Below the pieces are notes generated by a model, which saw nothing but the letters and a program-made list of their open reading frames with translations, was not told the DNA's origin and made no database searches. A program made the translations under genes and the position numbers. DNA of 64,000 nucleotides from Escherichia coli (lineage in GTDB: Bacteria; Pseudomonadota; Gammaproteobacteria; Enterobacterales; Enterobacteriaceae), in NCBI RefSeq assembly GCF_050920415.1, contig NZ_CP169309.1, one strand, 5' to 3'. The number at the start of each line of letters is the position of its first letter. Positions within the stretch are counted from its first letter, which is position 1. This document shows positions 5,578 to 63,353 of the stretch, in pieces.

Positions 5578-8810
<3,233 letters not shown>

Positions 8811-48566: not shown

Positions 48567-49862
48567 TTAATTTTTCACCACCTCGTTTTGGGGCATGGTT
48601 GGGGCAAACTCGCTTAGCTGTGTATTTAACAGGGCTACCTGTGCATTATTGTTTTCAGACATCCATTTCCCGTATACCTGAAACACCATTTGCGCATCTG
48701 CATGTCCCATCTGGTTTGCTATGAATGCCGGGTTGGCACCGGCTGTCAACGACCAGCAGGCATAAGTATGTCTCGACTGATATGATTTGCGGTGGCGGAG
48801 GCCAGCGCGCTTTATCGCTGCGTCCCACATCTGCCTTATTGAGTCAACGGTAAAATGGTCACCATAATTTTTTACTCTCGCTGACACTTCAGGTTGAAAA
48901 ACAAAGGTGCATTTTTGTTTTTCTGTTCTGCCGAACTCTCTGAGGTGAACGTCAATAATATGTTCTTTGCTCAGCCTCGTTAGTGTCATCTGACTCCTGA
49001 GAGCGTCGATTGCAGGCTTGATAAGGTGAATTACCCGATTGGTACCAGCCTGTGTTTTCGGTACCGTAAAACGATCTTTTGCTAAATTTCTCCTGATCAT
49101 CATTGTTCCATTTTTCAGATCTATGTCCTCCCACCCAAGCGCACACAGTTCACCAGGGCGAATGCCTGTATAAACAGAAACACACCATAAATTTTTGGCC
49201 TGCTGATTTCTGCAGGCGTCGATAAGACGGATAAATTCCTCCCGTGAAAGAGGATCAGGAATGGTTCTTGATTCCTTTAATGGCGAGATCCCCTTAAACG
49301 GATTATCTGCCAGGTAACCGTTATCAACACCAAACTGGAACACGGCGTTAAGATTTGTCATGTAATTATTTACAGTTACAGCCGATCTCCCTGGTTGTGT
49401 AACAATATAGTTACTTTTGGGGATCTGGTATCCAGTCAGTAGCTCTTTACGAACCTCCAGTAATTTTTCTTTATTAATCGATGAGGCAAGATTTTTTTCA
49501 CCGATTATGCTCAGGATATTTTTGATGACGGCACGGTATGTGTTGAGTGATGCTTTGGCGACTTCAGTTTCTTTCAGTGCCAGAAATTTTTCAGCCAGTT
49601 CTTTTATGGTTAAATCTTGTCGGGCCTCACCAAATTTTTCCAGATTGCGTGAGGAGGGAAACTGTTTTGCATAGTCGAAAACACCAGTTTTTATTGCGTA
49701 ACAAACAGAGGAGCGTAGTTCACCTGCAACGCGCCTGTTTTTTGCTGTGTCAGGAACCCCCAGATTTTCCCTGACTCTTACGCCTTTATAAACAAACCAG
49801 ATACGTAATTTCCCTCCATGGTTTTCCACGCCTGTCGGATATTTCATTTCAACTTCTCTCAT
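48567..49862 (-). CDS. Prophage tyrosine integrase (site-specific recombinase)
   Basis: C-terminal catalytic region with RHTYACW (His-x-x-Arg), GHADAQM and VYGKW (Tyr nucleophile); phage Int N-terminal arm-binding-type domain. True start may be the internal ATG giving MKYPTGVENHGG. Confidence 0.85.
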   Translation of the reverse strand: MREVEMKYPTGVENHGGKLRIWFVYKGVRVRENLGVPDTAKNRRVAGELRSSVCYAIKTGVFDYAKQFPSSRNLEKFGEARQDLTIKELAEKFLALKETEVAKASLNTYRAVIKNILSIIGEKNLASSINKEKLLEVRKELLTGYQIPKSNYIVTQPGRSAVTVNNYMTNLNAVFQFGVDNGYLADNPFKGISPLKESRTIPDPLSREEFIRLIDACRNQQAKNLWCVSVYTGIRPGELCALGWEDIDLKNGTMMIRRNLAKDRFTVPKTQAGTNRVIHLIKPAIDALRSQMTLTRLSKEHIIDVHLREFGRTEKQKCTFVFQPEVSARVKNYGDHFTVDSIRQMWDAAIKRAGLRHRKSYQSRHTYACWSLTAGANPAFIANQMGHADAQMVFQVYGKWMSENNNAQVALLNTQLSEFAPTMPQNEVVKN

Positions 49863-49881: not shown

Positions 49882-50133
49882 TCAAGTAAGATGACGTCTT
49901 GGTCTCGCTGATGCCTGGCGCTCAATCCAGCGATCAATTTCTTCCAGGTTGTAAAAGCATGGACTGTTATCCCATGGCATACCGTCATGAGCGACATGCT
50001 TATATTCCCTTCCTTCCATAAACGATTTTTCCCGGGCCTTTTTTAACGTACCTTTTTTTATTCCTTTCAGCGCAATTAACTGCTCTTCGGATACCCATTT
50101 GCCGGGAGAGACAATCATGATTACTTCGCTCAT
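49882..50133 (-). CDS. Excisionase-like small protein (putative Xis)
   Basis: 83-codon ORF immediately upstream of int on the same strand; small basic protein. Function inferred from position and size. Confidence 0.55.
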   Translation of the reverse strand: MSEVIMIVSPGKWVSEEQLIALKGIKKGTLKKAREKSFMEGREYKHVAHDGMPWDNSPCFYNLEEIDRWIERQASARPRRHLT

Positions 50134-50205: not shown

Positions 50206-52677
50206 TTAAGAATCAGCCTGACTCGGGATCAGTTTTTGCCAGATAACTGAAACGTATTTTGCCTGGTAACGGGCGTCATCAAGTGCATTATGGCGCTCAC
50301 CTTCGAATGGAATAGCCGTTCTGGCATCGAAGTCTATGGCTTTCCCCAGCTCAACGATTGTGCGTACATCGCGATCGTTGTAGTAACGCCACGGGCAGGG
50401 GATCCCCTGCCGTTCGTATGAACGGCGCAAAATCGTGTTGTCGAAGTTGGCTCCATTTCCCCAGACCTGAACAAAAAATTCACCGGAGTTTTCGTCGATA
50501 AATTCCCGCAATTGTAACAGTGCATCATCTAACGGGATTTCATCGGTCATAATGGCAGATTGCGCTTCGCGTGATTGCTTAAGCCACCATTTAATGGTGT
50601 CCCGATCAATGACTCCGCCAGCAGTTTCCAGATCGATAGTCTTACTAAATTCCGGTCCCATATCTCCGGTTTGCGGATCGAAAAATATTGCACCTATTGA
50701 GATAATCGGGGCATCAGGATTTTTTCCCATGGTTTCAAGGTCGATCATTAGATGGTCACACGTCCTGCTGGTGGATGTGATAACGTGATGACCGTTCACC
50801 GCAATTAAGGGATCTGCCGTCTCGCCAGTTTCATTATTGCTGGCGTGGTCCTGAGCGCTGCCAGCATTCTCCTTGTGTGGATGTTCAGCGCCTTCCATTT
50901 CCTCCGGATCATTTTCCTGAACTTCAACCTGATTCTCTTCATCGAATGTTTCTTGGTATGTTGCGTCGCCCATCACCGCACCACAATCAGGGCAGTTGCC
51001 GCCGCCGGTCTGACCGCATGCGGTGCAGACTTTTTCCGCTTCCTGTTGCGCTACTGGCTCAGGTTGTTTCGTTTCTGGCTCGTTTTGTAACGCATTTGGG
51101 CTGTTTTGTTCTGCTTTCTGGTCGTTCTGTTCCGTTTCTTGCTGGTTCTGATTCACTGAATCGCGGGTTTCAATCCCCTTCACCCATTTCGGATCATTCG
51201 GGTCGCTAATCCCTGCAACAAATTCACCACGTGATACAGCAAGCAACTTATCGGCGTCAGGCTGGCTGATATTGGCTGCCTGCATAATTTTGTTTACTTC
51301 GTCAGCGGTAACTTTTACCGGCTCTGGTTGTGCGGTCGTGTCAGATGCACCAGTATTTTGTTGTGAACCTGAGTATGTACCGTTTTTACGGGCAAAATAT
51401 TCTTCTTTCGTGATTTCAGTAGCCCCTGCAGTCAGCGCCTTATTCAGACCAGAAAGTTTGTTTGCGCGACCATATTTTTCGCCATCCTTGTCGGTGAAGA
51501 GGAAGTAGAACGGCCCCTCACGCTCTACAGATGGTTCGACTTCCACTTTGCATTCGGTTTTTTCGTTGTCCGGAATTGCCGTTTCCACTGCATCAGTTTC
51601 TGGTACTGGCGACGAGAGAGTATCAGTTGCGCTCTGATTTCTTCCTTCATCTTCAAACACGCCCTTTGTAGTCAGGTATTCAGTAATGTATTTGTTCAGT
51701 GTCACAGGGTCTTTGTGAATGTCGATCGGACGTTCACGGACAAGGCCAAAAATAGTCTGGCGGTCGTAGCGAAGGGCATCAGGCTGTTTGCGCATTGATG
51801 CCGAGATACGCTTCCAGTCTTCGCGGTCGTTGTCGATAACTTCATTTTTTGCCCAGCGATGGATGCTGCCGTCAATGTTTCCGGCATCCACATCACCAGG
51901 CCAGAGAGCGTAGGCCAGTTCGTCATCCAGTGTTTTCCATGTCTGCTTGTATTCGCGATGAGTGGCAGCAATGACCGGGCTGATTTTTCCTGTTGAATTG
52001 TCAGTGTACTGTTGATTGGCTCTGGCGCGGGCGAGATCAACAACAGACGTGTATTTTCCGGTTTCCTTGCGTTCACCTTCGCGACGTTTTTTCCAGATGC
52101 GCATCTCTGCCTGAATTTCGGGCCATTTAGCACCAGGAATACATTTATGCTTAACCCACCCAATGGCGTGCAACTTAAGCTCCGGATACATGGCGTTAAC
52201 TTCTGGCATTTTCATCAACGCTTCAACGATATGTCCGTCGAATGTTGCCATGTCTTCCTGCAACAATTCCTGTGCGCTAATAACCATATCAACGGTGATG
52301 TTTTCACATGTGTCGAACTTAACCAGGACCGCGTTCTGTACTTCAGGGGACAGCTTGTCAAAATTGACGTTCATCGGATCGGATTCTGGTTCGACCGGGA
52401 CAAAGGAAGCGCCTTCCTCATCCCAGCGGTTTTCCAGCATATATTCGGTATCCCAGGAGTCGATGGCAGGGCGGGGCATGCCGGGTTTATCCTCGCAGAC
52501 AAGAAATTTATAAGCGCAGTCCTGAGCAGCCGGATATTGCTCCAGGAATTGCCAGGTAAATTTGGCTCGGGCGCGACGTTCGTCGCCGGCTTCAATGGCA
52601 GTGGCTACAGCGACTGCACCTTCTTCCTTTATTGCCTGTTCGTCCGGAATGGCGGCGCAAATAAAGACTTTACTCAT
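50206..52677 (-). CDS. Prophage RecE-like protein (823 aa): acidic/Gln-rich linker with CxxC...CxxC zinc ribbon and C-terminal DEDDh-type 3'-5' exonuclease motifs
   Basis: Linker ...DPNDPKWVKGIETRD...CTACGQTGGGNCPDCGAVMGDATYQETFDEE... resembles the RecE linker as I recall it. C-terminus has Exo I motif MIDLETMG, Exo II-like FVQVWGNGANFD and Exo III HNALDDARY. Confidence 0.6.
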   Translation of the reverse strand: MSKVFICAAIPDEQAIKEEGAVAVATAIEAGDERRARAKFTWQFLEQYPAAQDCAYKFLVCEDKPGMPRPAIDSWDTEYMLENRWDEEGASFVPVEPESDPMNVNFDKLSPEVQNAVLVKFDTCENITVDMVISAQELLQEDMATFDGHIVEALMKMPEVNAMYPELKLHAIGWVKHKCIPGAKWPEIQAEMRIWKKRREGERKETGKYTSVVDLARARANQQYTDNSTGKISPVIAATHREYKQTWKTLDDELAYALWPGDVDAGNIDGSIHRWAKNEVIDNDREDWKRISASMRKQPDALRYDRQTIFGLVRERPIDIHKDPVTLNKYITEYLTTKGVFEDEGRNQSATDTLSSPVPETDAVETAIPDNEKTECKVEVEPSVEREGPFYFLFTDKDGEKYGRANKLSGLNKALTAGATEITKEEYFARKNGTYSGSQQNTGASDTTAQPEPVKVTADEVNKIMQAANISQPDADKLLAVSRGEFVAGISDPNDPKWVKGIETRDSVNQNQQETEQNDQKAEQNSPNALQNEPETKQPEPVAQQEAEKVCTACGQTGGGNCPDCGAVMGDATYQETFDEENQVEVQENDPEEMEGAEHPHKENAGSAQDHASNNETGETADPLIAVNGHHVITSTSRTCDHLMIDLETMGKNPDAPIISIGAIFFDPQTGDMGPEFSKTIDLETAGGVIDRDTIKWWLKQSREAQSAIMTDEIPLDDALLQLREFIDENSGEFFVQVWGNGANFDNTILRRSYERQGIPCPWRYYNDRDVRTIVELGKAIDFDARTAIPFEGERHNALDDARYQAKYVSVIWQKLIPSQADS

Positions 52678-52757: not shown

Positions 52758-52961
52758 TTACGGTGCTGTTTTAAGTCCTGCCGGGATTTCGTTATTGTCC
52801 ATGCGAATAACTTTCTCAACCGGATAACAGTTGCCGGGAATTTTCTGTTCCGCTGCGGCAGCCATGCATTCTTTCATTGAGTCATGTATACCAATAACAA
52901 GATCAACTGGCTCGCCCGTATTAAGAAAAACCGTCAGAACGAGTGCAAATGCTGTATTCAT
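52758..52961 (-). CDS. Hypothetical small secreted/membrane prophage protein (about 67 aa)
   Basis: ORF with signal-like N-terminus MNTAFALVLTVFLNTGE... immediately upstream of the recE-like gene; the track ORF extends to 53015. Confidence 0.35.
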   Translation of the reverse strand: MNTAFALVLTVFLNTGEPVDLVIGIHDSMKECMAAAAEQKIPGNCYPVEKVIRMDNNEIPAGLKTAP

Positions 52962-53898
52962 TGCCAGTATCCTTTTTGCATCAGACGTAAACGGGCCAGC
53001 ATTGATACAATGCATATTTGATTTAATAGCTCCCGTTCGTGTTTTCTCTTATTAATGGCATCTTCAGTAAATACAGGGTTACTGATTCTGACACCAATTT
53101 CAAAACAACCTTCAGACGTATTAACGTTTGGTAATAACGTTTCCATTATCGCGTCCTCAACAATGAATTTTGTGATACGGTGCCTGGTGCCTCCAGGTGA
53201 CGTTAACCAGTTAACAATTAACGCCGGATACAGAGAACCCACCCATAAGAACCAATACGGAAGTCAACTGGCCTTTTTAACTGTTCCGCGTGCGCTTAGC
53301 CGCATTCACCGCATCACAAAATTCACTTTAAAAAGGGCGGCAGAGCAGTCACGGAGTAAAACTGATACCGCCAAACGTCACCAGAAAATTGATAACAGAG
53401 GGCGTTGCAGCGGGGTTGCCACTTAAGCGTATGGTCAACCTGACAACCCGGTGTCCTCAACGGGGAAGGAATAACCCCGCCATACTTACCGCCGCGCCAT
53501 TTCGCGGATTGCCACAACCGGAAGCGCACAGACGAAGATGTCAGTGGTACACAACAAAGGGAGGAATGACTTCGCCGTGCGCTTTCGCGTTATGCCCTGA
53601 CTTTTCAGGGATATATCCTTTCAGTAAACTGTTTGTGCCGGATTCTTATCCGTGTCCGGCGCACGACCACGCGCTGTCACGTGTGGTCTCCATTCTCAAC
53701 CAGTAACCTCAATGGAGGATAAAATTAAAATGGTCAGCAAACTAAATTAGACTCGCTGGAAGATTCATTATTAAACAGCGCGTTTAAATTATATTCTTGA
53801 ATGTTTTGGGGATAACCTTGCTGCTGAGGAAGGCTATCCAAACCATGTCGATGGTTTCGAAGCGATATATCTTTATCTATCCCGTAAACATGGATGGA

Positions 53899-54721: not shown

Positions 54722-55372
54722 CTATAGGCTGAACTGCACACCTTTTGCTACAGCAACAATTTTACATTCAGGTGTCAGTAAGGACGATTGATAGCGAGGA
54801 TTGAGGGGGCTTAAATACACGAGTTTTCCGTCGATGACTAATTTTTTTATAGTCATAGATGGTTCGTTTGTAAGCGGATCTGGGACTATTACAGCGACGA
54901 TACTACCATTTTTATATTTTTCTCTAGGCCTCATGATCACTGTGGCACCAACCGGAATGCTTGGCGACCCTGATGGGTTGTGCATAGTGTCATCAGGCAT
55001 TGAAACGGCAAAATCCCCCTCCTTGACGTCAAAGAATGTGGTGATTCTGTCGGCATTTCCCATAGTTTTCTCTCCTTCTAAAATTAGGAAAGAAATTGCT
55101 TCCCCCCATGAAAGATAGGGGATTTGGGTGCCTGAATTGTTCTGCACAAGGGTAGGTTCAGTAGACGATACTCCATATAGGAGATAGGACTCAGTAGTTC
55201 CTAGTGCTTGGGCTAATTTACTAAGAGCTTTGCTACCGGGTTCGTTTAGGTCTTTCTCCCAGTACCCTATAGTTACCCCTGTTACGCCAGAAAGCTTGCC
55301 CAGTTCGACTTGGGTCAGTCCCTTGTCTTTTCTGAGTCTCTTAAGCCTAATGCCAAGGCTTTCCATCATCAT
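54722..55372 (-). CDS. Prophage CI-like repressor: XRE-type HTH plus S24 (LexA-like) autopeptidase domain
   Basis: N-terminal HTH (LKRLRKDKGLTQVELGKLSGVTGVTIGYWE) and C-terminal S24-like region (...GSIVAVIV...KKLVIDGKLVYLSPLN); divergent from a cro-like gene. Confidence 0.85.
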   Translation of the reverse strand: MMMESLGIRLKRLRKDKGLTQVELGKLSGVTGVTIGYWEKDLNEPGSKALSKLAQALGTTESYLLYGVSSTEPTLVQNNSGTQIPYLSWGEAISFLILEGEKTMGNADRITTFFDVKEGDFAVSMPDDTMHNPSGSPSIPVGATVIMRPREKYKNGSIVAVIVPDPLTNEPSMTIKKLVIDGKLVYLSPLNPRYQSSLLTPECKIVAVAKGVQFSL

Positions 55373-56137: not shown

Positions 56138-56962
56138 ATGAGCAGCAAGCTTCATGGTCTTGTCTGGGAAGGGTGCGCCTTCACCGGCATGATCTTATCC
56201 AGGGTGGCAGTAATGGCTCGCCTTGCAGACTACAGCAATGACGAAGGTGTGTCATGGCCTGCAGTGGAGACCATTCGTCGTCAGATTGGGGCAAAGAGTG
56301 AATCAACGGTTAAAGCGGCGATAGCGGAACTGGAAAAGAACGGCTGGCTGACGAAGGAGGAGCGTAAGGTCGGTGGGCGTAATGAAAGCAATATCTACCG
56401 CCTTAATGTGGAAAAACTCGAAGCAGCAGCTGAGGCGGCGCGTGAGGCATATAAACCGAAAAGAAAAATTAGCCCGGCAAAAAATGACCCGTTAACAGTT
56501 GACCAGTCAAATATTGCCCCCTCAACGGTTGACCCGTCAAATTTTGATGGATCAACCGTTGGTAAAAAACAGCCGGTTAGGGGGGCGATGGTTGGCCCCG
56601 ATCCGTCAGTATTAAAACCTGATCCGTCAGATAAAAGATCTTTTCGTCCGGAAGCTTCGCAACCGGACCCGCAGACGGCTGAACAGGATTTTTTAACCCG
56701 ACATCCTGATGCGGTTGTGTTTAGTGCAAAAAAACGTCAGTGGGGAACTCAGGAGGATTTGGCATGCGCACAGTGGATCTGGGGGCGAATCGTGAGTCTT
56801 TACGAACAGGCCGCCAGCGATGATGGCGAGATCACCCGACCGAAAGAACCCAACTGGACAGCATGGGCCAATGACGTGCGCATAATGCGGATGCTGGATG
56901 GCAGAACTCACAGACAAATCTGTGAACCGCCCCGGGTTTCCTGGAGAGTGTTTTATCTGTGA
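56138..56962 (+). pseudogene. Phage replication-initiator (O-like, N-terminal winged-HTH) gene, 5' part; interrupted by an IS element after codon 261
   Basis: N-terminus ...AVMARLADYSNDEGVSWPAVETIRRQIGAKSESTVKAAIAELEKNGWL is typical of phage replisome-organiser proteins. The frame ends inside the IS inverted repeat; the original frame resumes at 58235 and stops at 58414. Confidence 0.65.
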
Positions 56963-56964
56963 AC

Positions 56965-57831
56965 TCAGGCTGCCAGATCATTGTTTCCGATGGAAGCATA
57001 ATAAGCTTTTTCTGCTTCTGCCGGAGGAGTATGGCCCAGCCTTCCCAGCAATCGTCGATTGTTATACCAGTCCACCCACGTGAGTGTGGCCAGTTCCACT
57101 TCTGCACGGTTTTTCCAGCTCTTACGGTGTATTACCTCCGCTTTGTAAAGACCATTGATGCTCTCAGCCATCGCGTTGTCATACGAGTCGCCTGTACTCC
57201 CTGTTGATGCCAGCAGTTTTGCTTCTTTTAGTCGCTCCGTATAGGCCAGTGACACATACTGAGAGCCTTTATCGCTGTGATGGATGGTGCCAGACGGACG
57301 ACGGGCCCACAACGCCTGCTCCAGCGCATCCAGCACGAATGTCGTTTCCATAGACGATGAGACCCGCCACCCCACGATGTATCCGGCAAACACATCAATG
57401 ATGAACGCCACATAGACGAAGCCCTGCCATGTGCTGACGTAAGTAAAATCAGCCACCCACAGCTGGTCAGGACGTTCTGCCACGAACTGACGGTTTACGC
57501 GGTCACCTGTGGCAACGGTTTTCCGGCTGACGGTAGTGCGGACCTTTTTACCCCGGAGAACACCGGCAAGTCCCATAACCGCCATGAGGCGCGCCACTGT
57601 ACATCTGGCCACCCTGATTCCTTCCCGTAACAACTGACGCCAGACTTTACGCACACCGTACACCTGATGATTTTCATCGTATACGCGCTGTATCTCTCTC
57701 TTCAGCCAGTCATCGCGCTGCGCACGGGCACTGCGTTTATCAGGATGATGCCGCTGCTGCTGACAATGGTAATACGTTGACGGGGCAATATGCAGTTCAC
57801 TGCATACCGGTCCGACCCCCGTACTGCTCAC
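56965..57831 (-). CDS. IS3-family transposase OrfB (DDE integrase core)
   Basis: DDE core ...LWVADFTYVSTWQGFVYVAFIIDVFAGYIVGW...HHSDKGSQY...DSYDNAMAESINGLYKAE. In this copy the body is in the same frame as orfA rather than the -1 frame. Confidence 0.85.
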   Translation of the reverse strand: MSSTGVGPVCSELHIAPSTYYHCQQQRHHPDKRSARAQRDDWLKREIQRVYDENHQVYGVRKVWRQLLREGIRVARCTVARLMAVMGLAGVLRGKKVRTTVSRKTVATGDRVNRQFVAERPDQLWVADFTYVSTWQGFVYVAFIIDVFAGYIVGWRVSSSMETTFVLDALEQALWARRPSGTIHHSDKGSQYVSLAYTERLKEAKLLASTGSTGDSYDNAMAESINGLYKAEVIHRKSWKNRAEVELATLTWVDWYNNRRLLGRLGHTPPAEAEKAYYASIGNNDLAA

Positions 57832-57852
57832 GCAGCTTATCCAGCAGTGGCA

Positions 57853-58179
57853 TTATTTTTTCCAGAGGCGGTCGAACTCCGCCTTCGCAAAATAAGCGGA
57901 AGCCTGGCGAAGGATATCGTTACTGCGGCGCAGTTCACGATTTTCACGTTCCAGCTCTTTCAGACGCTGACGTTCAGCGGTGGTGAGCCCACCATCACCG
58001 CTCCCGGTATCCCTCTCATGCTGGCGAACCCAGACACGCAGAGTCTCTGGCGTACAGCCAATCTTTGGAGCAATGGAACAAATTGCCGCCCATTGTGAGT
58101 CATATTCGCCCTGACTTTCCAGAACCATACGAACTGCGCGTTGACGGACTTCGGGGGAAAAACGAGTATTTTTAGTCAT
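57853..58179 (-). CDS. IS3-family transposase OrfA (HTH plus leucine zipper), 108 aa
   Basis: [57 protein letters not shown]...; ends WKK-stop at an A-rich run. Confidence 0.85.
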
Positions 58180-58234
58180 CCTGTTTACCTCTTTCTCAGG
58201 AAGTTTAGTCTCCAGGATTTCCGGGGCGGTTCAC

Positions 58235-61398: not shown

Positions 61399-62097
61399 TT
61401 ATACACCTAAATGCGCTAGATCGCTAACGTCTGAATATGGGCAGCTATGGGAGGTAGTCCAGTTTTCAAGGGTCACGTTAGGAGTATAGTCGACCACGAA
61501 CTGACCATCATTTTCAGGATCTTCCCGTCGATGATAAACATTGAGTGTAAATAGGCCTGCATATTTCGCGAGCATATGTTCAATGGTCTCTCTGCTCTTG
61601 AAAAAGTTCGCTTTAAGAACCTCTAACGGAACCTTACGAGAGCGGGCTTGGGCAAAAACCCACGCGTAAGCCGGATCAAAATAGACGTAATTCAGTGCTA
61701 CCTGATAACCAGCCTTCAGGGCCAGATCAAAGTTTCTCTCCGCAATACCTATACTGGAGAAAGTAGAGTCCATAACAATGGGATAGCCTTCAGATAGCGC
61801 TTTTTTGTAGATAAAATCGACCATTCTGGAGGCAGGTCTCTGATAGTCCACAGAGTTCTCTTCATTGTAGTAGGGGAACCACCAGCGAAAATCATCAGCA
61901 TCAATTCGAACAATGTTTGTGATGCCATGTTGTTCTAAAAGACGATTTAAGAGCTCGGTTTTACCTGCAGCAGGCGAACCAGCCATAAACAGGACGTGCT
62001 TGGCATTGGCATTTTTGTTTGCTGTTACGTAACTATAAACGTAAGGGCGAATTGCCTCACCAAACTCAGGCAGTATGGTTTCAAGTTCTTTTTTCAT
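61399..62097 (-). CDS. P-loop kinase of the zeta-toxin / polynucleotide-kinase superfamily (232 aa)
   Basis: Walker A MAGSPAAGKTEL followed by IVRIDADDFR (compare zeta toxin GGQPGSGKTS...VIVIDNDTFK and T4 Pnk GCPGSGKST...NRDDYR), then IVMDSTFSS and ALKAGYQVALNYVYFDP. Confidence 0.55.
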   Translation of the reverse strand: MKKELETILPEFGEAIRPYVYSYVTANKNANAKHVLFMAGSPAAGKTELLNRLLEQHGITNIVRIDADDFRWWFPYYNEENSVDYQRPASRMVDFIYKKALSEGYPIVMDSTFSSIGIAERNFDLALKAGYQVALNYVYFDPAYAWVFAQARSRKVPLEVLKANFFKSRETIEHMLAKYAGLFTLNVYHRREDPENDGQFVVDYTPNVTLENWTTSHSCPYSDVSDLAHLGV

Positions 62098-62911: not shown

Positions 62912-63122
62912 TTTTATATTGGCGAGGTGACGGGAGTTAAGTAGGATTGCTGCGGGTGCTTGAGGCTATCTGTCTCAGGCATGAATACCAACGGCAGATA
63001 GAGAAAAGCCCCAGTTAACATTACGCGTCCTGCAAGACGCCTAACATTAATCTGAGGCCATATCTATGACTTGCACACGTAGGTTAGCCTCTTACGTGCC
63101 GAAAGGCAAGGAGAAGCAGGCT

Positions 63123-63353
63123 ATGAAGCAGCATAAGGCGATGTTAATCGCCCTGATTGTCATCTGTTTAACTGTCATTGTGACGGCACTGGTAACGAGG
63201 AAAGATCTCTGTGAGGTACGAATCCGAACCAGCCAAACGGAGGTCGCTGTCTTCACAGCTTACGAACCTGAGGAGTTAGAGACCAGGCGAGGGAGAAATC
63301 CCTCGCCACCTCTGATGAGTCAGGCATCCTCAATGCACCCACACTTAACTTGA
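63123..63353 (+). CDS. Hok/Gef-family type I toxin homologue with a 25-codon C-terminal extension (76 codons to the first stop)
   Basis: MKQHKAMLIALIVICLTVIVTALVTRKDLCEVRIRTSQTEVAVFTAYEPEE aligns with Hok (...[24 protein letters not shown]...). After ...EPEE the next codon is TTA (Leu) and the frame runs to 63353. Confidence 0.75.
   Translation: MKQHKAMLIALIVICLTVIVTALVTRKDLCEVRIRTSQTEVAVFTAYEPEELETRRGRNPSPPLMSQASSMHPHLT

Follow-up and report, generated by a model that had tools for sequence, protein, structure and literature searches.

A lambdoid prophage exonuclease gene

The DNA analyzed here is a 64,000-nucleotide stretch from Escherichia coli (contig NZ_CP169309.1, RefSeq assembly GCF_050920415.1), referred to below as the window. 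Next to the excisionase and integrase genes of a lambdoid prophage it carries an exonuclease gene at 50206..52677 on the minus strand, which appears in the list of open reading frames (ORFs) with an ATG start and encodes 823 amino acids. A preliminary description of the window had placed an ORF with DEDDh exonuclease motifs at exactly these positions, and both of the motifs it quoted are present, MIDLETMG at residues 644–651 and HNALDDARY at residues 796–804. The predicted protein is identical to RefSeq WP_000048570.1, named 'exonuclease', and the gene has a 100% DNA match in E. coli NZ_CP169399.1, where it bears the same annotation. Additionally, PHROG 2082, a family of 823 positions, matches protein positions 1–822 of 823 with a score of 1853 bits. 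The gene is a standard, catalogued exonuclease of the Qin/Tritos-type lambdoid prophages of E. coli, and the window copy, 92.5% identical to the Tritos orthologue, is one allele of the Tritos-type exonuclease gene.

The C-terminal domain is a DnaQ-like nuclease

Residues 634–823, encoded together with the stop codon at 50206..50778 (−), were assigned to a DEDDh (DnaQ-like) 3′–5′ exonuclease domain using Pfam, AlphaFold2, Foldseek and sequence alignment. Pfam family PF16473 (Rv2179c-like 3′–5′ exoribonuclease) matches residues 642–813 with an expect value (E) of 5.2e-67 over model positions 2–177 of 177. RNase_T gave a weak second match to the same domain, and no PD-(D/E)XK family was found in the Pfam search of the protein. 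The only solved relative found by sequence was T4 DexA (PDB 8KEL). An AlphaFold2 model of residues 634–823, built with 39 homologues, reached a mean predicted local distance difference test score (pLDDT) of 89.6 and a predicted template modelling score (pTM) of 0.86, and DexA was again the top match when this model was compared with the PDB by Foldseek (E 5e-12, template modelling score 0.75). The next matches were RNase T, Orn (oligoribonuclease) and REXO2, all three at probability 1.00, and a Cas-associated DnaQ domain.

The five predicted catalytic residues, D646, E648, D746, H796 and D801, are invariant in the 39 homologues. In a MAFFT alignment they fall on D7, E9, the Asp of SFD, H186 and D191 of DexA, using the catalytic residue numbers given for DexA in PMC12153337. 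Whether the DEDD-like residues lie on a DnaQ fold had been proposed as a check; it was run, and the residues do map. Thus the earlier view of the C-terminus as DnaQ-like and not PD-(D/E)XK is borne out by both the PF16473 match and the DexA-like predicted fold, and assignment to the DEDDh exonuclease class is well supported by sequence and model. The 3′–5′ polarity is that expected from the family, and metal dependence and a DNA substrate are likewise predicted.

While the domain shares its fold and all five catalytic residues with T4 DexA and the rest of PF16473, the two proteins are only ∼26% identical, and DexA has extra loops and is a free-standing protein of 227 amino acids, whereas the window domain forms the C-terminus of an 823-residue scaffold. 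Closer in sequence are free-standing prophage 3′–5′ exonucleases of ∼183–190 amino acids from Escherichia, Salmonella, Klebsiella and Enterobacter. These belong to the same Pfam family and are 58–87% identical to residues 634–823, but lack the RecE/YdfE scaffold altogether.

The scaffold combines a YdfE-type module with the middle of RecE

The protein had been described as RecE-like, which holds for residues ∼238–626 but neither for residues 1–235 nor for the C-terminal nuclease. By BLASTP, residues 262–625 align with residues 278–591 of K-12 RecE (E 1e-63, 40% identity overall), and identity is near-complete over residues ∼470–625. No alignment extended past RecE 591, where the RecE nuclease domain begins. 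Similarly, the NCBIfam model for exodeoxyribonuclease VIII, NF007259, matches residues 238–626 to profile positions 261–603 of 877 and scores 285.7 bits, below its curated equivalog cut-off of 1269. The common part is the non-catalytic middle of RecE alone, and the protein is not RecE by this curated test. A phmmer search with RecE 600–866 matched PD-(D/E)XK relatives but missed P0241, the close stand-in for the window protein in this search (94% identity across the first 345 amino acids).

The first 235 residues (51973..52677, −) form a YdfE_N-type module that has no counterpart in K-12 RecE. They are followed by a helical module common to RecE, YdfE_C or central Exonuc_VIII, at residues 236–345 (51643..51972, −), as indicated by the BLASTP alignment from residue 262, NF007259 and the AlphaFold2 model. 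The model of residues 1–440 has a pLDDT of 86.4 and predicts four confident folded units separated by disordered linkers: an α/β domain (1–95), a helical domain (105–205), a second helical domain (245–345) whose helices over 247–345 exceed a pLDDT of 90, and a small β-hairpin and helix domain (388–432). All close homologues of residues 1–345 carry PF27430 (YdfE_N) and PF27432 (YdfE_C); the Pfam profile search of the window protein itself matched neither family, and the assignment is made through these relatives.

The small domain at residues 388–432 (51382..51516, −) has the motif GPFYF...GRANK...EITKEEY.ARKNGT, and its strands (390–396 and 399–405) and helices (408–416 and 424–431) are predicted with a pLDDT of ∼95. 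In phmmer searches its seed was found in relatives with DEDDh, PD-(D/E)XK, type-3 and type-4 C-termini (described below), so it is kept across several effector types.

Residues 466–633 (50779..51282, −) form an acidic, Gln-rich linker with the motif RGEFVxGISDPNDPKW that is near-identical to RecE ∼455–591, and the phmmer seed for it also matches several relatives with other effector domains. Within this stretch, C551, C554, C562 and C565 make up the CxxC...CxxC pattern of a putative zinc ribbon, CxxC-x7-CxxC, at residues 551–565 (50983..51027, −), which is identical in K-12 RecE and gives a weak Pfam DZR match (E 0.3). The resemblance of the linker to that of RecE, noted in the preliminary description, is thereby confirmed by alignment. 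The putative zinc ribbon is missing from some DEDDh relatives, such as P0244.

Gene neighborhood and absence of an annealase

As had been noted, the exonuclease gene lies directly upstream of xis and int. The excisionase gene (49882..50133, −; PHROG 539, E 1.4e-35) begins 72 nucleotides downstream, followed by the integrase gene (48567..49862, −; PHROG 1, E 1.9e-75) at the rspB-side attachment site. int abuts rspB, rspA, ynfA, ynfB and speG, which is the attachment site of the K-12 cryptic prophage Qin, with the same layout as in K-12. On the other side lie small YdfD-like (DUF1482) and DicB-like genes (52758..53242, −), identified by PHROG 1092, PHROG 1251, the RefSeq annotation of NZ_CP169399.1 and the gene order of K-12 Qin, which probably belong to the same leftward operon as the exonuclease gene. 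Further upstream in this operon is the gene for the DicF small RNA (53335..53386, −; Rfam RF00039, 76.7 bits, E 9e-16), and the right end of the early-left region searched is marked by a cI-like (LexA-family) repressor gene (54722..55372, −; PHROG 4, E 2.2e-32). Apart from DicF, the interval from the exonuclease gene to cI holds four small ORFs of PHROG 'unknown function', two of which are dicB and the DUF1482 gene in RefSeq.

The preliminary description saw no RecT/Bet-like annealase next to the gene, and PHROG scans agree: no annealase (RecT, Bet, Erf or Sak) was found among ORFs of at least 50 amino acids from int to cI, or among those of at least 70 amino acids onward to 64 kb (48.5–64 kb in all). 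These scans of the prophage part of the window also found neither a single-stranded DNA-binding protein (SSB) nor a RecBCD inhibitor. The order cI, small genes, dicF, dicB, ydfD, exonuclease, xis, int is common to Tritos and PhiR42_1, whose loci have no annealase either, and in phage HannyBb no annealase is annotated anywhere in the complete genome. Likewise, in two more distant DEDDh lineages xis and int directly follow the nuclease gene, and no annealase or RecBCD inhibitor was found.

A weak scan of the minus strand upstream of the exonuclease gene detected no promoter-like site. Given this result and the position downstream of dicF, dicB and ydfD, the protein is most likely made only upon derepression of the leftward operon.

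The prophage has further notable features. The lambda-O-like gene (56138..56962) ends at about position 235 of its 298-position PHROG profile, where there is an IS3-family insertion. Within the region 56138–58210, which spans the O gene and this element, are IS3-family orfB (56965..57831, −), orfA (57853..58179, −) and an ALIL frameshift pseudoknot (57781..57898; RF01497). Because the O gene is interrupted by the IS3-family element, this prophage copy is probably replication-defective. A hok/sok-type toxin-antitoxin locus occupies 62954–63353, with a sok RNA (62954..63128; RF01794, 108 bits) and a MokW-like host-killing ORF (63066..63353). Lastly, a 232-residue ORF at 61399..62097 (−) was likened to a 'zeta toxin family protein' gene of a related strain by length alone.

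Prevalence, naming and selection

The preliminary description implied that a protein of this design is rare. Instead, the DEDDh form is commoner in E. coli than the RecE nuclease, and it is covered by Pfam and PHROG. Among 5426 complete E. coli genomes, 3532 carry the full gene at a coverage of at least 80%, often in several copies. DNA of the DEDDh domain (the last 555 nucleotides) occurs in 4047 of these genomes at 8109 places, while DNA of the K-12 RecE nuclease domain occurs in 1730. RefSeq products are named 'exonuclease', '3'-5' exonuclease' or '3'-5' exoribonuclease domain-containing protein'.

Six phage records (ON470612.1, ON470619.1, ON470583.1, ON470580.1, OV696610.1 and PV340562.1) bear the labels 'exodeoxyribonuclease VIII' or 'exonuclease VIII, ds DNA exonuclease'. 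They carry the exonuclease gene or variants with its C-terminal half, and the nuclease in them is of the DEDDh and not the RecE type. The label 'exodeoxyribonuclease VIII', which persists in many records, is thus an annotation error, as it implies a 5′–3′ RecE activity that is almost certainly not present.

E. coli K-12 retains only a fragment of the gene. By tblastn, the Qin pseudogene ydfE corresponds to codons 1–256 of the exonuclease gene at 93% identity and is cut by IS2E. It sits at the Qin locus, the same chromosomal site. K-12 has thus lost the DEDDh domain, which accounts for the lack of studies of this gene in the standard laboratory strain. We also considered exoD of the K-12 prophage DLP12 as a relic of the gene and rejected it, since tblastn gave no match at E <1e-5 and Qin ydfE alone matches.

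Against the orthologues of Tritos, PhiR42_1 and HannyBb, the ratio of nonsynonymous to synonymous substitution rates (dN/dS) is 0.26–0.29 overall. The DEDDh domain is identical in protein sequence to all three phage copies, with a dS of 0.024, and dS rises to ∼0.52 over residues 346–465, a more than 20-fold synonymous spread along the gene (range 0.02 to 0.52). These values show purifying selection on a gene that is mosaic, its segments being differently related. Since dS differs from module to module, recombination has apparently taken place among copies, and the data indicate that a recent event spread one DEDDh allele over copies that are otherwise diverged.

Relatives of the scaffold carry interchangeable C-termini

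A search of residues 1–345 against 1.84 billion cluster representatives returned 176 relatives, and the C-termini of 60 long ones were sorted with phmmer seeds. A DEDDh C-terminus was found in nine of the 60, a RecE nuclease of the K-12 type in four and a longer PD-(D/E)XK nuclease in eight. The largest group (22 relatives) has a type-3 C-terminus with the motif KKSLTDAxKKALSxLGF, eight have a type-4 C-terminus with no Pfam match, and the remaining nine are cut short or have none of these types. Among the 60, YdfE_N and the RecE N-terminus were each seen with both nuclease types. Thus one part of the claim that had been made for this gene, a domain swap, stands: the junction lies at the RecE domain boundary, domains are exchanged among relatives, and the exchange is real and happened repeatedly. 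The other part, resection of opposite polarity, is unsupported.

The accompanying genes vary with the effector. In the one PD-(D/E)XK relative checked, a RecT-like gene comes next (PHROG 561, E 3.5e-101). In the one type-4 form examined, xis and int follow directly, and there is no annealase and no RecBCD inhibitor. The type-4 domain, as represented by residues 540–702 of P0246 and seven other representatives (loci L012 and L013, 5001–7109), is without a nuclease, and the type-4 proteins are probably the 'RecE-2' proteins of Zheng et al. 2025.

The type-3 domain is ∼270 amino acids long, has the extended motif KKSLTDAxKKALSxLGFxAD, and is represented by residues 505–778 of P0250 and 21 further representatives. 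At one type-3 locus (L010, 5342–8486) genes resembling lambda Gam and Mu Gam lie on the flanks. The domain matches Pfam Rad52_Rad22 only at E 0.078, and searches of PDB sequences (by profile) and of NCBIfam yielded nothing significant. It may be an unrecognized, fused annealase, an idea with which the Gam-like neighbors would agree.

Comparison with known systems

Similar to recE of the K-12 prophage Rac, which encodes exonuclease VIII, the window gene lies in a leftward early operon directly upstream of xis and int, and the two proteins are homologous over RecE 278–591 and residues 262–625, linker and CxxC...CxxC included. RecE, however, ends in a PD-(D/E)XK 5′–3′ nuclease, has a recT partner and lacks the first 235 residues (YdfE_N) of the window protein, which has a DEDDh domain and no recT. 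Closest of all are the exonucleases of the Tritos, mEp460, HannyBb, PhiR42_1 and PPompW prophages. These orthologues share 91–97% DNA identity over the full length and have the same neighbors, and the Tritos group shows essentially no difference from the window copy.

The phages themselves belong to a published class. In an analysis of 325 lambdoid genomes (Zheng, Casjens, Davidson, Amundsen and Smith, Genome Res 2025; PMC12315714), the authors describe DnaQ-like 3′–5′ nucleases in early-left operons, some 'very near int', as well as 'RecE-2' proteins without a nuclease domain. Table 1 of the paper defines a 'Tritos' type, with abundant Chi sites, in which a nuclease is present and annealase, SSB and RecBCD inhibitor are all absent, and the authors propose that phages without a recombination system of their own use host RecBCD and Chi. 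The window prophage resembles this type, as it has a nuclease and no annealase, SSB or RecBCD inhibitor was found; the main text of that paper gives no nuclease type for Tritos, and the match is made by orthologue and gene content.

The closest solved structure leads to a different setting. Kang et al. (NAR 2025; PMC12153337) solved the structure of DexA and found that an E. coli homologue, EcD, attacks T4 DNA, leaves unmodified DNA intact and protects cells from T4. EcD lacks the tetramer-forming Asp (DexA D90, Ala in EcD), and DexA W152 and D169 serve in recognition of 5-hydroxymethylcytosine.

Proposed role of the exonuclease in the prophage

What is directly established is the domain composition, fold, conserved catalytic residues, genomic context, purifying selection and wide distribution of the gene. 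From these we infer when it is expressed and what it does. With a moderate degree of confidence, we favor a modular 3′–5′ exonuclease of the early left operon, mounted on a YdfE/RecE scaffold, that is not one half of a RecET or lambda Red pair. The scaffold, composed of YdfE_N, the RecE-type central module, the β/α domain and the linker with its zinc ribbon, would be non-catalytic and carry the C-terminal nuclease. Expressed only with the derepressed leftward early operon, the nuclease would be a Mg2+-dependent DEDDh exonuclease that removes nucleotides at 3′ ends and so trims 3′ DNA ends or tails in phage DNA metabolism, while host RecBCD and RecA would probably serve the recombination-dependent growth of such phages. 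A place in a RecET or lambda Red pair is disfavored by the wrong fold, the wrong predicted polarity and the lack of an annealase or RecBCD inhibitor. Additionally, DEDDh forms are consistently without an annealase or RecBCD inhibitor, whereas recT stands by the one PD-(D/E)XK form checked, which argues against a RecET-like pathway.

Several observations weigh against this proposal. The best Pfam family takes its name from an exoribonuclease, which leaves RNA as a possible substrate, and an E. coli homologue of DexA is reported to defend cells against T4 (Kang et al. 2025; PMC12153337), which would be a different role. Chi is only modestly enriched, with four sites on the plus and one on the minus strand across the 15.5 kb of prophage that the window contains, which is part of the prophage, and five versus two in the whole HannyBb genome; these counts are suggestive only. 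Furthermore, the O replication gene is cut by IS3 in this copy, so that here the exonuclease gene may never serve a lytic cycle that yields phage, and the promoter scan is a weak test of where transcription starts. One of the Chi octamers, GCTGGTGG at window position 50767 (+), lies inside the exonuclease gene and is kept in the HannyBb, Tritos, PhiR42_1 and NZ_CP169399.1 copies.

The similarity to DexA raises the alternative that the protein is a prophage defence nuclease ('HREX'-like) that spares unmodified host DNA, degrades the hydroxymethylcytosine DNA of superinfecting T-even phages and thereby protects the lysogen. DexA is the closest solved structure, and the high prevalence of the gene in E. 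coli would fit a benefit to the host. In the work of Kang et al. (PMC12153337), EcD supplied on a plasmid broke down T4 DNA and shielded cells from T4, and Escherichia was the genus richest in DexA homologues. EcD, however, begins with MIDTET, as read from its cloning primer, and is absent among the 120 closest homologues of the DEDDh domain, which makes it a more distant relative. Nor are the specificity features of DexA reproduced in the MAFFT alignment, within the limits of ∼26% identity: D90 is kept as D718 (Ala in EcD), but W152 and D169, which correspond to Y766 and A779, are not kept. The gene also sits inside a leftward operon under repressor control, where the scan found no separate promoter for it, its scaffold is otherwise attached to nucleases of recombination, and PADLOC gives only a generic Cas-associated DEDDh match (E 1.9e-5). 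We consider a defence role unlikely. The Pfam name suggests yet another activity, that of an exoribonuclease like Rv2179c of M. tuberculosis, trimming the 3′ ends of, for example, phage or host transcripts after induction. Many RefSeq copies are named '3'-5' exoribonuclease domain-containing protein', the structural neighbors include RNase T, Orn and REXO2, and the small RNA gene dicF shares the operon. The name itself says little, because DEDDh enzymes commonly accept both DNA and RNA, and a literature search found no paper linking Rv2179c to prophages. Since the closest solved structure, T4 DexA, is a DNase and the domain takes the place of a DNA exonuclease on the RecE scaffold, this activity appears very unlikely.

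Closer to RecE itself is a recombination exonuclease of reversed polarity, in which 3′–5′ resection of double-strand ends would expose single-stranded 5′ tails. These would pair by themselves or with help from a host factor, giving end joining or recombination of phage DNA independently of an annealase. The gene is located where recE would be, and its product retains the central module and linker of RecE. Other effectors on the same scaffold tie the family to recombination: 5′–3′ nucleases, of which one is paired with RecT, and a possible annealase-like domain whose gene has Gam-type neighbors. In E. coli, RecA-independent assembly in vivo can be supported by ExoIII through 3′–5′ resection. 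Nonetheless, no DEDDh context examined contains an annealase, DexA and RNase T, the nearest relatives to have been characterized, work chiefly on 3′ ends that are single-stranded, and, according to Zheng et al. (PMC12315714), 3′–5′ exonucleases of the DnaQ type usually inhibit homologous recombination. We therefore regard reversed-polarity resection as quite unlikely. A decaying relic without present function is highly improbable. This copy of the prophage is probably defective, with its O gene cut by IS3, and K-12 has only the truncated fragment ydfE, but thousands of genomes, this one included, carry an uninterrupted frame, dN/dS is ∼0.27, the catalytic domain is identical in protein sequence to three phage copies, the catalytic residues are invariant, and complete genome records of phages, HannyBb and Tritos among them, contain the gene.

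Significance for the RecE family

As a discovery the gene matters little, being among the commonest prophage genes of E. coli, already named in RefSeq, and found in a phage type whose lack of an annealase is published. Its remaining interest lies in what such a nuclease, mounted on a RecE scaffold and predicted to act 3′–5′, contributes to phages lacking both an annealase and a RecBCD inhibitor. A speculative and rather doubtful answer from the comparison of relatives is that the YdfE/RecE scaffold is a general targeting or delivery module with which lambdoid phages place interchangeable DNA-end effectors (the two nuclease types, the possible annealase-like domain or the fourth domain) at one site or partner, the DEDDh version providing a distinct, annealase-free handling of phage or invading DNA ends. 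If this is true, the DEDDh form would, for example, condition ends for host RecBCD–Chi recombination or destroy superinfecting DNA, a mechanism that has not been described. The role of the large N-terminal region of RecE has long been unclear, and a single scaffold with at least four alternative C-terminal domains offers a concrete route to its study.

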